64,000 nt of DNA from Candidatus Dormiibacterota bacterium (GTDB taxonomy: Bacteria; Chloroflexota; Dormibacteria; Aeolococcales; Bog-877), in assembly GCA_049583555.1 (NCBI GenBank), contig JBAUWA010000095.1, positions 6,533 through 70,532 of the forward strand. The letters are read 5' to 3'. A program made the position numbers and the translations under genes. Below the pieces are notes generated by a model that did no database searches, had not been told where the DNA came from, and saw nothing but the letters and a program-made list of their open reading frames with translations. Numbering within the stretch: position 1 is the stretch's first letter; each line of letters starts with the position of its first letter. Positions 53,429-58,773 of this stretch are shown here, in pieces.

Positions 53429-54318
53429 TCCAGGTGAGCGGGCTGGGTGAGCAATCGCTCCCAGTCCAGCATCGAGGCAAGGAATACGGGGCCCTGACGG
53501 CAGCAGAGTCCTAGGACGGGGTGGTCGCCATCGATATCGCCCACCGGGACGGCGCATCCCAGGCAGGTGCCGAACCCACAACCCATGGGCGCTTCGATGG
53601 AGACCTCGAGCGCCGGTGCGGTCGCCAGCCGGCCGGAAAGGTCGGCGAGGGATCTAAAAACCGCCGCCAGCATCTGATTGGGCCCGCAGGCGTAGGCACG
53701 TTGCGCTTGGCTGAGATGAGAGGCAAGTCCCACCGTGACGCGCCCCAAAATTCCGGAGCTGCCGTCCTCGGTGAGGCGGATCATCTGGTCTACCCCCGGG
53801 GGTACGAGTTCTTGGGGATAGAGCTCAGTAGCAGTCCTGGCGCCGTTGATCCATACCACCTGCTCACCGCGATCCAGGAGCACCTGAGTGAGGAGCGGAA
53901 AGGGGGCTGCACCCAGTCCACCCGAGATCAGCACCGACCGCCCAGGGCGGTCCGGCAGGGTGAACCCTTGGCCCAATGGCCCCAGGATCCTCGCCGGCAT
54001 ACCAGGCGCGAATCGCTGCAGGCGCCGGCTGCCCTCGCCCACCGCGCCCACGTAGAAGGAAACCTCGCCAGTCTCCGGGTCCGTACGGCTGAAGGAGAAG
54101 GGTCGGCGCAGCAGTGGGATGTGACTCTCCTCCACCCAGATCTGGGCGAACTCCCCAGGTTGGGCTCGGCGGGAGATCTCGGGCGCGCAGAAGGAGATCT
54201 GAAAAAGGTTCCCCTCCAGGGGCAGCACCGAGGTGCACTCGACCTGCTCATCCACCGCTCGGGACAGCCGGCTCTCGCCGATTAGACGCTTGGCGGACAG
54301 GCTGGCCAGCTGAGTCAC
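53425..54318 (-). CDS. pyrK: Dihydroorotate dehydrogenase electron-transfer subunit PyrK
   Basis: FNR-like FAD/NAD domain plus a C-terminal [2Fe-2S] Cys cluster (CGFGTCLGCAV...C). Translationally coupled on both sides (carB stop to pyrK start, pyrK stop to pyrD start). Confidence 0.9.
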   Translation of the reverse strand: MTQLASLSAKRLIGESRLSRAVDEQVECTSVLPLEGNLFQISFCAPEISRRAQPGEFAQIWVEESHIPLLRRPFSFSRTDPETGEVSFYVGAVGEGSRRLQRFAPGMPARILGPLGQGFTLPDRPGRSVLISGGLGAAPFPLLTQVLLDRGEQVVWINGARTATELYPQELVPPGVDQMIRLTEDGSSGILGRVTVGLASHLSQAQRAYACGPNQMLAAVFRSLADLSGRLATAPALEVSIEAPMGCGFGTCLGCAVPVGDIDGDHPVLGLCCRQGPVFLASMLDWERLLTQPAHLE

Positions 54319-57300
54319 GGCGCCACCTGGCGGAGGCTGCCCTGGCGGTGTTCACCAATAGTCGCGACCTCGACCACGCCGCCGCCGCCGCTTTCCAGAG
54401 CGGCCACTAGGGCGGCGGCAGTCTCGAGTGAGGTGAGGCAGGGTATGCCCCTCTGCACTGCGGCCTGACGGATGCGGTAGCCGTCTCGAACCGGTCGCCG
54501 GCCGCCCCAGTCTTCGCCATCCGGTTCCAGCTCATCGGTCCCGGTGCCCGAGATGGTATTGATGACCAGCTCGACCTGGCCGGCCACGGTGACGTCGAGG
54601 ACGTTGGGCCGGCCGGAGTGGAGCTTGCTGACCTCGACCACACTGATTCCCGCTTGGCGGAGAGCCGCTGCAGTGCCCGGAGTGGCGTAGAGACGAAAGC
54701 CCAACTCGGCCAGTCGGGCGGCGATCGGCAGACCCTCGGCCTTGTCCTGATCGGCGATGCTGACCAGCGCTCCACCCCGGCGAGGTAGGCTGCCCAGGGC
54801 GGCCCAGAACGCCTTCTCGAGTGCCTCCGGGAGCGACGGTGCCACCCCGATCACCTCCCCGGTGGAGGTCATTTCTGGCCCCAGGACGCTGTCGACCTGG
54901 TCGAGTTTGCGCGCCGAAAATACCGGGGCCTTGACCGCAACCAGAGGTGGCGGTGGCAGCAATCCCACCGCCAGGTGACGTGATTGCAAGGACTCGCCGA
55001 GCATGGCTCCGACCGCGGTGTCCACCATTGCCACCCCGGTCACCTTGCTCAGGAAGGGAACGGTCCGGCTTGCCCGGGGGTTCACCTCGATTACCAGGAC
55101 CTGCCCTCGGTGGACCACGTACTGGACGTTGATCAGGCCCACCGTGCTGGTGCCCAGCGCCAGCTCGGCGGTGATCCTGACTAGATCGGCGATGGCGGTC
55201 GGGTCGAGCCGCTGCGGCGGAAAGACCGCCATCGAGTCCCCGGAGTGGACGCCGGCCCTCTCGATGTGCTCCATGACGCCGGGAACCAGCACCTGCTCGC
55301 CGTCGCAGATGGCGTCGACCTCAACCTCCATCCCCAGGATGTACTTGTCGATCAGCACCTCGCCGCCAGCGTCGCCCGAGGCCAGCAGGGCGTCGCCCAG
55401 ATACAGCCGCAGCTCTTGCAGCGAGTGAACCACGTCCATGGCCCGACCACCCAGGACGTAAGAGGGCCGCACCAGCACCGGGTAGCCCACCCGGTCGGCG
55501 ATCCGCTCCGCCTCCTCGGGGTCGCGAGTGGCGGCCCCGGGGGGACGGGCGATGCCTAGGCGCTGGAGCAAGGCCTCGAAGCGCCCGCGATCTTCGGCCA
55601 TCTCGATGGAGGCTGCTGCCGAGCCCAGCAGGGGCACCCCCAGGTGGTGGAGCTGTCCAGCCAGGTTGACTGCGGTCTGGCCGCCGAACTGGACCATGAC
55701 TCCCCGGGGCCGCTCCACCGAGCAGACCTGGAGCACCGACTCCAGGTCCACCGGCTCGAAGTAGAGCCGGGAGCTGCAGTCGAAGTCGGTGGACACCGTT
55801 TCCGGGTTGCTGTTGATCATCACTGCCTCCAGGCCCCGGCGCTGGAGAGCCGCTGCCGCCTGAACCGAGCAGTAGTCAAACTCGATGCCCTGCCCGATCC
55901 TGATCGGGCCCGACCCCAGCACCACCGCAGACCCCGCGCCTCCCCTCTGCTCGTCCTCAATCTCGAAGCTGGAGTAGAAGTAGGGGGTGGTGGCGTCGAA
56001 CTCAGCCGCGCAGGTGTCGACGCACTTGAAGGTGGGGAGGACCCCAGTCCGGGTGCGCTCCTCCTCCACCTGAGCCGGAGCTCGTTCGGTGAGCTGGGCG
56101 ATCCTTCGGTCGGAGAGGCCGGAGCGTTTGGCCAGACGAAGGAGGGCCACCGGGAGCTCACCACCGGCCGCCTTCGCGAGGTCCGCCTCTAGGCCGGCCA
56201 GGTCGCCCAGGCGATCGCAGAACCACTGCGGGTAGCCGGTGCGGCGCGCGACGGTGGCGGCGTCCTCGCCGCGCGCCAGCGCCTCGAGCACCGCCTGCAG
56301 CCGAAGATCGGTGGGTTCCTCCAAACGCTCCGTCGCTCGCCGCAGCGCCGATGGCTCGGGCGCAACCTGCTCCAGCGAGCGCAGCACCTTGCTGATCGCC
56401 GACTCGAAGGTTCTGCCAATGGCCATCGCCTCGCCGGTTGACTTCATCTGGGTGCCCAGCCGCCGGTCGCCGTGGGGGAACTTGTCGAATGGCCAGCGGG
56501 GCGACTTGGCGACGCAGTAATCCAGGCTGGGCTCAAAGGCCGCGCAGGTGCGGCCGGTGACCTGGTTGCGAATCTCCCTGAGCCGCCGACCCACCGCGAT
56601 CTTGGCCGCCACCCGTGCGATCGGGTAGCCGGTGGCTTTGGAGGCCAGGGCTGAGGAGCGGCTCACCCTAGGGTTGACCTCGATCACGAAGTAAGTGAAG
56701 GAGTCGGGCGCAAGCGCGAACTGGACGTTGCAGCCGCCCTCGATCTTGAGTGACCGAATGATGCGGAGCGCGGCCGAGCGCAGCTGCTGGTGCTCTTTAT
56801 CGGTGAGGGTCTGGCTGGGAGCAACCACCAGGGAGTCCCCGGTGTGGACTCCCATCGGGTCGAGGTTCTCCATGTTGCAGACACAGATGCAGGTGTCGTC
56901 GCCGTCTCGCATCACCTCGTACTCCAGCTCCCGCCAGCCCACCAGCGCCTGCTCCACCAGCACCTGAGTGATGGGGCTGACCTGGAGCCCGCGAGCCACC
57001 ACCTGCTCCAGCTCCTCCAGACTGTGGACAAGGCCACCACCCGTGCCTCCCAGGGTGAAGGCGGGCCGGACCACTAGCGGCAACCCCACCTCGAGGGCAA
57101 AGGAGGTGGCTTCTGACACGCTGTTGACGGTCCGGGAGGGGGGTACGGGCTCCCCGATCGAGATCATTCTTCGCTTGAAGCGCTCACGGTCTTCGGCGTC
57201 GCGCACCGCCTCCAGCGGAGTCCCCAACACCCGCACCTGGTATTGCTCAAGCACTCCGGCCTCGTCGAGAGCCACGGCCAGATTCAGAGCCGTTTGCCCT

Positions 57301-58773
57301 CCTAGGCCGGCGAGAAGTCCGTCGGGACGTTCCCGCGCTATCACCTTGCTCAGGACCTCTACGGTCAGCGGCTCCAGGTAGACCCGGTCGGCAACCTCCT
57401 CGTCGGTCATGATGGTGGCGGGGTTGCTGTTGACCAGCACCACCTCCATGCCCTCCTCGCGGAGAGCCCGGCAGGCCTGGGTTCCCGCGTAGTCGAACTC
57501 GGCAGCCTGTCCGATCACAATCGGCCCACTGCCCAGAACCAGCACCCGGCGGATCGATCCTCTATCAGGAGCTGAGGTCGGGACCCGATGCCGGTTATCC
57601 CCGCGCCCAGTCCGGCTCAGGTCCAGGAACTCGTCGAAAAGATGCTGGCGATCTTGAGGTCCAGGACTGCCCTCGGGGTGGTACTGCACTGATATCACCG
57701 GGAGTTGGTGGTGTCGCAGCCCCTCCACCGAGTCGTCGTTGAGGTTGCGCTCGGAAACGATCCAGCCGCTCTCCACAACGATGCTCTGGGCATCTACCTG
57801 GAATTCGTGGTTTTGGGGGGTCACGAAGACCTCGCCAGTGACCAGGTCCGCCACCGGGTGGTTGCCCCCGTGATGCCCGAAGGGAAGGCGACTGGTGGTT
57901 CCCCCGATCGCCCTTCCCACCAGCTGGTGGCCCAGGCAGATGGCGAGGATGGGATAGCGCTCCAAGAGGCCTTTGACCAGCTCGACCTGGGCGGTGAGGC
58001 TGGCGGGGTCGCCGGGTCCGTTGCTGAGGAAGACCCCGTCCGGGTGGAGGTCTGCGATCTCATCGAGGGTGGCCGAATGGGGCAGAACCCAAACCTCGGC
58101 GCCCCGACTGACCAGCGAGCGCAGGGCGTTGCGCTTCACCCCCAGGTCTAGCACGGCGATGCGTAACCCCTCCCCGCTGGCGCGCTGTCCGGCCCCCCGG
58201 CGCAGGGCCGGATGGAGCGGCTCCAGCCAGCGCCTGGTCTGAGTCGAGGAGACTGCGGCGACCAGATCCTGCTCCGAGACTGAGGGCGAGCGCCGCGCTA
58301 GCTCCGCCAGTTCCCCCACGGATCCGGCGCTGGTGGGCGCCATTACCCCACGCAAGGTCCCGTGGTCCCGCAGATGTCGGGTCAGCGCTCTGGTGTCCAC
58401 CCCCTCCAGGCCGGGCACACCCTGGTCCTCGAGCCAGGCTCCAAAAGTCGACTGAGCCTGCCAGTGGGGTGAGGTCGGACTGCACTCGGCGACGATCACC
58501 CCCCGGCAGAAGGCGCGGTCCGACTCCATATCCACTTCAGCCGCCCCGACATTTCCGATCAGAGGCTGGGTGAAGACCAGCAGTTGCCCGGCATACGAGG
58601 GGTCGGTGCAGACCTCCTGATACCCGGTCATGCAGGTGTTGAAGACCACCTCCCCCAAGCCCAGCTGCGAACCGACCGCGGGCTTGGCGCCGATCCAGGT
58701 TCCTGAGAAGGACGCGCCCGACTCCAGAACCAGTCGTCCCTCCTCCCCCTGCCCCCGACTGCTCAGAACCAAC
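54315..58773 (-). CDS. carAB: Carbamoyl-phosphate synthase: carA (small, glutaminase) and carB (large) read as one continuous in-frame ORF
   Basis: The CarA part (RLVLESGASFSG... ICLGHQL ... YHPEGSPGP) runs directly into CarB (…[25 protein letters not shown]…) with no stop and no canonical start in the linker of about 10 aa. CarB shows both ATP-grasp halves and the MGS-like domain. The likely start is a TTG at about 58772, immediately after the pyrC stop. The ORF extension to 58997 overlaps pyrC. Confidence 0.85.

Follow-up and report, generated by a model that had tools for sequence, protein, structure and literature searches.

Probable inherited fusion of carA and carB in Candidatus Dormibacterota, predicted to encode a single-chain glutamine-dependent carbamoyl phosphate synthetase

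Bacteria normally encode the two subunits of carbamoyl phosphate synthetase (CPS) as separate genes. In a 64,000-nucleotide stretch of DNA from a Candidatus Dormiibacterota bacterium (assembly GCA_049583555.1, contig JBAUWA010000095.1, positions 6,533 to 70,532; the whole stretch is referred to here as the window), carA and carB are instead found in a single reading frame on the minus strand. The listing of open reading frames (ORFs) of the window contains one stop-free ORF of 1560 codons (54315..58997) that spans both coding regions, and in the frame translated across the whole ORF there is no stop codon between the CarA and CarB modules. The initial annotation had described an uninterrupted frame of 1560 codons with an end coordinate of 58773, and had quoted peptides for the end of CarA, the linker and the start of CarB; all of these peptides are exact and contiguous in the translation of the ORF. 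The uninterrupted frame stands, but 1560 codons is not a realistic gene length, since it describes the maximal ORF counted from an upstream GTG at 58997, the first 75 codons of which overlap the preceding gene, pyrC. The realistic start is a TTG codon (58770-58772) one base past the pyrC stop, so that the end coordinate first given was one base off. The carAB gene (54315..58772, minus strand) thus has 1485 codons and a TGA stop at 54315-54317, and its 1485-residue product is 100% identical, over the same length, to NCBI protein P0001 from a Candidatus Dormiibacterota metagenome-assembled genome (MAG).

The first 392 residues of the product (57597..58772) constitute the CarA module, corresponding to the glutaminase or small subunit. 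The NCBIfam model TIGR01368 aligns from position 2 to 358 of its 361 positions with residues 13-385 (421.1 bits against a cutoff of 307.35), and NF009475 scores 401.3 bits (cutoff 221); the module qualifies as a full-length equivalog of the small subunit of glutamine-hydrolysing CPS. E. coli CarA chains match residues 13-387 with 265 bits. In Pfam, the CPSase small-chain N-terminal domain (PF00988, 153.8 bits) covers residues ~14-143 (58344..58733) and the class-I glutamine amidotransferase domain (PF00117, 156.3 bits) residues ~207-384 (57621..58154); the Pfam query began at 58784, which shifts its residue numbering by 4. The Cys-His-Glu triad of class-I amidotransferases is present, and its codons were checked: Cys279 (57936-57938) lies in the motif ICLGHQ, and His365 (57678-57680) and Glu367 (57672-57674) lie in YHPE. 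All three residues are invariant across 67 aligned homologues, and we take their counterparts in E. coli CarA to be Cys269, His353 and Glu355.

The CarB module, corresponding to the synthetase or large subunit, extends from residue 401 to 1485 (54318..57572). NF003671 matches residues 402-1462 over positions 2-1049 of 1058 with 1414 bits (cutoff 599), TIGR01369 scores 1388.9 bits (cutoff 1027), and E. coli CarB matches residues 402-1411 with 986 bits. Pfam recognises CPSase_L_D1 and D2 twice each, followed by D3 and MGS, and the module is a full-length CarB equivalog with both ATP-grasp halves, the oligomerisation domain and the allosteric domain. The first ATP-grasp (carboxyphosphate) domain is located at residues ~528-733 (56574..57191; PF02786, the better of two stretches), the oligomerisation domain CPSase_L_D3 at residues ~815-895 (56088..56330; PF02787, 57.4 bits), and the C-terminal MGS-like (allosteric) domain at residues ~1348-1447 (54432..54731; PF02142, 62 bits).

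The two modules are joined by an interdomain linker (residues 389-408; 57549..57608). Position 2 of the CarB profile aligns to residue 402, and Ala401 (GCT, 57570-57572) stands where the initiator Met of CarB would be. CarB therefore has no initiation codon of its own at the position of the usual MPKR... N-terminus, and CarA, which is followed by no intervening stop, is not a chain of its own bound non-covalently to CarB. About 8 residues (393-400) separate the extrapolated end of the CarA profile from the CarB Met position. The linker of about 10 residues originally proposed can be read in two ways, as an insert of ~8 residues over a plain concatenation of CarA and CarB, or as a whole unstructured stretch of ~20 residues. 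The statement that no ATG, GTG or TTG occurs where carB would begin holds at the canonical position, but an in-frame GTG (Val410, 57543..57545), the sole start-type codon in frame nearby, is found nine codons further on, within the conserved VLVLGSGP strand.

A full-length search identified more than 115 cluster representatives of ~1440-1590 amino acids, with 60-93% identity and 97-100% coverage, all of which hold the CarA and CarB domains in one chain. These representatives come from independent NCBI, JGI and ENA assemblies; those that bear a name belong to Dormibacterota, a phylum of soil bacteria. Among the matches listed, 119 of 120 sequences carry YHPEG, a linker and VLV[LI]GSGP within one chain. 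The 119 sequences have 116 distinct linkers, which are rich in Ala, Pro, Arg, Gly and Ser and vary in length from 22 to 124 residues when counted after FDEFL. When 116 full-length sequences are aligned, no internal window is less conserved than the linker, which has a mean column identity of 0.21 as compared to 0.97 and 0.98 in the flanking motifs. Almost free drift of the linker, combined with a frame that is never lost, is characteristic of selection for translation across the junction. The linker of one homologue, P0074 (1589 amino acids), contains four tandem copies of GGGYPQGAAPHHRGS, and several further homologues have linkers of 100-150 residues, suggesting that the tether can grow by internal repeats.

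The same picture is obtained at the DNA level. Of the 80 loci kept from a scan of GTDB species representatives, only five (L001, L002, L003, L005 and L006) are fused; these group with the Dormibacterota proteins, and some of them were submitted under the name 'Chloroflexi bacterium CF_121/CF_92'. In other phyla, loci with carA ahead of carB show a stop and/or a distinct Met, Leu or Val start, and some carB genes are found without a preceding carA. A seemingly widespread cross-phylum fusion, suggested by tblastn results in which query residues 1-353 were matched, was rejected after frame-by-frame inspection, which revealed adjacent separate genes with merged hits.

When the CarB part was used as a query, nine proteins of CarB length appeared in the top 120, and their N-termini resemble the linker rather than MPKR.... 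Four such CarB-only proteins (P0043, P0398, P0401 and P0402) were considered as counter-examples and discarded, because the underlying DNA contains intact fused frames. In all four loci with enough upstream DNA (L081, L084, L085 and L086) the frame is open through a complete CarA, for a total of 1494-1611 codons. Most 'CarB-only' annotations in this clade are thus artefacts of start calling. In these NCBI Dormibacteria MAG records the CarA part, ~1.2 kb located after pyrC (2800-4000 in L081; ~1750-3000 in the other three), is without a called gene, and 'CarB' has been annotated from a chance ATG in the linker. Two further sequences, P0136 (a CarA-plus-tail fragment) and P0125 (a frameshifted fragment), are uninformative.

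An AlphaFold2 model was calculated for residues 1-960 using 67 sequences (predicted local distance difference test score, pLDDT, 81.9; predicted template-modelling score 0.87). The model has a helix at residues 376-388, a coil at 389-408 (pLDDT 49 at 391-400) and a strand at 409-413. Using Foldseek, it aligns as one chain with human CPS1 (5dou; template-modelling score 0.85, root-mean-square deviation 3.7 Å, 953 columns), and it also aligns separately with E. coli CarB and E. coli CarA. The glutaminase module precedes the synthetase module as in single-chain CPS enzymes, and the two are predicted to dock as they do in the heterodimer. In the well-studied E. coli CPS, glutamine is hydrolysed and the ammonia is channelled to the first ATP-grasp site, and carbamate to the second. 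By analogy with the E. coli and human enzymes, glutamine would be hydrolysed here at Cys279/His365/Glu367, ammonia would tunnel to the first ATP-grasp site, and carbamate would pass to the second. The tether would fix a 1:1 stoichiometry and the association of the modules, and in this respect alone would the protein differ from the canonical enzyme of bacteria; the CPS mechanism as understood is unchanged by the fusion. Judged from its sequence, the protein is a functional-looking single-chain glutamine-dependent CPS.

The two modules can be compared with the E. coli CarA/CarB heterodimer (PDB 1JDB/1BXR), of which both are full-length equivalogs, with identities of 35% for CarA and 48% for CarB in structural alignments. 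The Cys-His-Glu triad, the two ATP-grasp halves, and the oligomerisation and MGS-like allosteric domains are common to both systems. Like bacterial carA and carB, the gene is located in a pyrimidine operon, and it groups phylogenetically with bacterial CarB, as sister to Chloroflexota. By contrast with the E. coli enzyme, the two subunits are combined in a single chain, neither the carA stop nor the carB initiator Met is present, and the modules are connected by a disordered tether of ~20 residues. The module order is identical to that of the eukaryotic single-chain enzymes (human CPS1, 5DOU/5DOT; CPS III; and CPS II as part of CAD/URA2), and the phmmer alignment to human CPS1 extends from 10 to 1460 in one stretch. 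Unlike the eukaryotic enzymes, the Dormibacterota protein is not fused to aspartate carbamoyltransferase or dihydroorotase, which are encoded by separate genes of the operon, and its linker is shorter and hypervariable. CPS1 is ammonia-dependent, whereas the glutaminase Cys has been retained here, and the enzyme is therefore predicted to be glutamine-dependent.

The initial annotation had likened the product to the fused CPS of eukaryotes. This is apt for the architecture but not for descent, since both sequence and phylogeny place the protein with bacterial, Chloroflexota-like CarA/CarB. In a neighbour-joining tree of the CarB part (61 sequences, 1035 columns, 100 bootstraps), the fused Dormibacterota sequences are monophyletic (100/100) and sister to the unfused CarB of Dehalococcoidia and Chloroflexia (100/100). 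They group with the eukaryotic fused clade in 0/100 replicates, and common descent with the eukaryotic fused enzymes is thus contradicted by the tree. All bacterial fused proteins are likewise found together in 0/100. The position of the Dormibacterota CarB is in line with the literature, in which Dormibacterota and Chloroflexota are sister groups (PMC10608941). The scores point in the same direction: E. coli CarB (986 bits) and CarA (265 bits) together exceed the whole of human CPS1 (1003 bits). The fusion is therefore an event independent of that in eukaryotes.

Further fused lineages exist among bacteria. P0123 and P0278-P0282, one of which is from a Deltaproteobacteria MAG, are located next to Proteobacteria in the CarB tree, P0289 is located beside an Anaerolineae sequence, and P0284 and P0286 are also fused. 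All of these are encoded on gene-dense contigs of prokaryote type, while most of the remaining fused representatives that bear a name are eukaryotes. The bacterial proteins share the CarA-linker-CarB architecture (1473-1524 amino acids) with the Dormibacterota protein. They differ from it in branching at other places of the CarB tree, in making up only small groups (a few clusters), and in being encoded outside pyr operons in the two loci inspected, L082 (5001-9440; P0123 group), with a CarB part near Proteobacteria, and L083 (5001-9437; P0286), with a CarB part near an Anaerolineae sequence. Fusion has thus arisen several times, and it is that of Dormibacterota which extends over an entire deep clade.

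Based on the fused frame in more than 115 diverged homologues, we conclude that carA-carB of this Candidatus Dormibacterota bacterium is very probably a genuine, inherited fusion that gives rise to a single-chain glutamine-dependent CPS. Three other explanations have to be weighed against it. The initial annotation had raised the alternative that a 1-nucleotide indel or an altered or miscalled stop joined two ordinary genes at the junction, and the source of the sequence (a MAG), the separate carA and carB of canonical bacteria and an out-of-frame TGA TAG within the linker (57562-57567) could all be cited in its favour. Out-of-frame stops are, however, the chance expectation for any 60-nucleotide stretch. 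More importantly, linkers that vary and yet stay in frame in many independent assemblies show that the fusion is no sequencing error, and the five GTDB species representatives and the four re-examined 'CarB-only' loci are fused at the level of DNA. The comparison with relatives that had been proposed as a check yielded uniformly fused genes, the single split one (L087) being a contig-end fragment, and not uniformly separate ones; an artefact is thus exceedingly unlikely. Acquisition of the fused gene from a eukaryote, with a CPS I/III- or CAD-type single-chain enzyme as donor, is likewise exceedingly unlikely. The domain order is that of eukaryotic CPS, and human CPS1 is both the top PDB match by whole-chain score and the best structural match, but CPS1 heads the PDB list only because no other solved chain spans both modules. 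The CarB part is 58-61% identical to three unfused Chloroflexota sequences and only 42-43% identical to eukaryotic ones, in keeping with the 0/100 bootstrap value for a grouping with eukaryotes. Moreover, it has the bacterial-type motif GSGPIVIGQ in place of the eukaryotic GSGGLSIGQ, the active-site Cys is kept, unlike in sequences where the motif GxCxGxQ was not found, and the gene belongs to a bacterial pyr operon, the stops and starts of which overlap.

A less improbable alternative, although still an unlikely one, is that the single gene yields two proteins, either by internal initiation in or just after the linker or by cleavage of the linker, and that these form a conventional CarA/CarB heterodimer. 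The GTG at Val410 is in frame and has a weak AGAGGA ~12 nucleotides upstream, the linkers of some relatives contain chance ATG or GTG codons that gene callers have chosen as starts, and the linker is exposed and disordered in the structural model, which would make it accessible to proteases. On the other hand, in the seven Dormibacterota loci compared, the Val410 codon is GTC in five (L081, L001, L002, L003 and L006), GTG being confined to this window and L005, and hence is not conserved as a start; the positions of ATG and GTG codons in the linker are not conserved among relatives either. Initiation at Val410 would remove ~9 N-terminal residues, whereas the CarB profile matches from position 2, and internal initiation would still leave CarA joined to a full CarB. 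A promoter/terminator scan detected no promoter-like or terminator-like site near the carA-carB junction, and the persistence of the frame through linkers that range from 22 to 124 residues points to selection for read-through.

Several points nevertheless count against a single-chain enzyme that is shared by the whole clade. Post-translational cleavage of the linker into two subunits is possible, and particular species might initiate translation internally, in this genome for instance at the GTG of 57543-57545, although the site is not conserved. One locus, L087 (P0399), is truly split, with the carA TGA overlapping a carB GTG in a different frame. It is the only truly split carA and carB found inside the fused clade, within which its CarB nests (100/100). 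The split is located at the start of a contig (1-143), where 140 nucleotides of carA are left, and the CarA tail is atypical for Dormibacterota relatives (HPEASPGPADSS; HPEASPGPADSSDLFDRF). When the junction of L087 was aligned to that of its nearest fused relative, L088, the difference was not reducible to one indel. The split may represent secondary fission, replacement of carA, or a chimera or misassembly at the contig end, so that either the fused state is not absolutely universal or the contig end of L087 is misassembled. The tree is based on neighbour-joining with simple distances and not on maximum likelihood. Finally, Dormibacterota are uncultured and the whole case is inferred from sequence, and a view limited to a 64-kb window leaves room for a second, unfused CPS elsewhere in the genome.

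With respect to the origin of the inherited fusion, the carA stop and the carB start would have been lost from two adjacent, co-translated genes in an ancestor common to the Dormibacterota sampled, and the linker would have formed from the former end of CarA, a short spacer and the N-terminus of CarB. This event would be independent of the eukaryotic CPS fusions and of the few other small fused lineages in bacteria. A plausible precursor state is seen in L004, a Dehalococcoidia MAG, in which (at ~6300-6480) the carA TAA is followed by 11 in-frame codons and a TTG start for carB in the same frame; this arrangement is one stop-codon loss away from a fusion and would yield such a linker. On balance, we favour the view that the fusion is a rare genomic change that became fixed in Dormibacterota at their base or close to it and is absent from the sampled Chloroflexota classes, which would make it a clean synapomorphy. 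If so, it would provide a character for deciding between phylum rank for Dormibacteria and class rank within Chloroflexota.

According to a single line in a review (PMC6022934), CPS II of bacteria may occur either as a heterodimer or as one fused peptide, and our literature search revealed no paper joining Dormibacterota with carbamoyl. The single-chain architecture is therefore known, and the Dormibacterota protein is an undescribed, clade-wide and independently evolved member; the fusion is genuine but only moderately surprising. It is of modest importance for the evolution of multi-subunit enzymes, as a well-sampled bacterial case in which a subunit fusion repeats that of eukaryotic CPS and a plausible precursor arrangement is available. 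For biochemistry, E. coli CPS and human CPS1 could be compared with a bacterial single-chain CPS whose glutaminase is predicted to be active. If the reading is correct, this is a natural, independently evolved bacterial single-chain CPS with linkers of ~20 to >120 residues, some of them with internal tandem repeats, and the free variation of the linker would allow a direct test of the contribution of tethering to ammonia channelling and allostery. There is also a practical consequence. In public pipelines the fused proteins are labelled 'large subunit', or are cut to CarB length with 1.2 kb of carA left unannotated, and as a result Dormibacterota genomes can seem to lack carA in metabolic reconstructions.

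The carAB gene is part of a pyr operon with the order pyrB-pyrR-pyrC-carAB-pyrK-pyrD, in which all genes are on the minus strand and which is translationally coupled. The gene order in related loci is identical. The first gene, pyrB (60653..61609), encodes aspartate carbamoyltransferase (Pfam OTCace_N and OTCace) and overlaps the next by GTGA. This is a pyrR-like phosphoribosyltransferase gene (60078..60656; Pfam Pribosyltran), which in turn has a TTGA overlap with pyrC (58774..60081), the gene for dihydroorotase (Pfam Amidohydro_1; a dihydroorotase is found at the same place in related loci). At the pyrC/carAB junction the sequence is TGA-g-TTG, leaving a gap of 1 nucleotide. Downstream of carAB, the GTG start of pyrK (53425..54318; electron-transfer subunit of dihydroorotate dehydrogenase B, Pfam DHODB_Fe-S_bind) overlaps the carAB TGA (GTGA), and the ATG of pyrD (52460..53428; dihydroorotate dehydrogenase of 322 amino acids, Pfam DHO_dh, 242.7 bits) overlaps the pyrK stop (ATGA). 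Each of the junctions other than the one within carAB is thus a stop/start overlap or a 1-nucleotide gap. The pyrR-like gene is located between pyrB and pyrC and not at the head of the operon, and no PyrR-binding element was found at the Rfam gathering threshold anywhere in the window.

The only Rfam match of the window at this threshold is a tRNA gene (40511-40582, plus strand, 72 bits), which lies inside a mechanical ORF (40330..40851). Elsewhere on the plus strand, an ORF of 675 amino acids (14418-16445) with two radical-SAM stretches and CofH_C looks like a fused CofG/CofH (an FbiC-type F0 synthase), i.e. another subunit fusion in the window. A cluster of three plus-strand ORFs is found at 40848-47049. 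The first (40848-42476) encodes a Pyr_redox_2/Fer4_20 protein that resembles domain II of dihydropyrimidine dehydrogenase. It is followed by a 1245-codon ORF for a single-chain pyruvate:ferredoxin oxidoreductase (42302-46039), the annotated start of which overlaps the previous ORF by 175 nucleotides, and by an ORF for a weakly DHO_dh-like protein (46039-47049).

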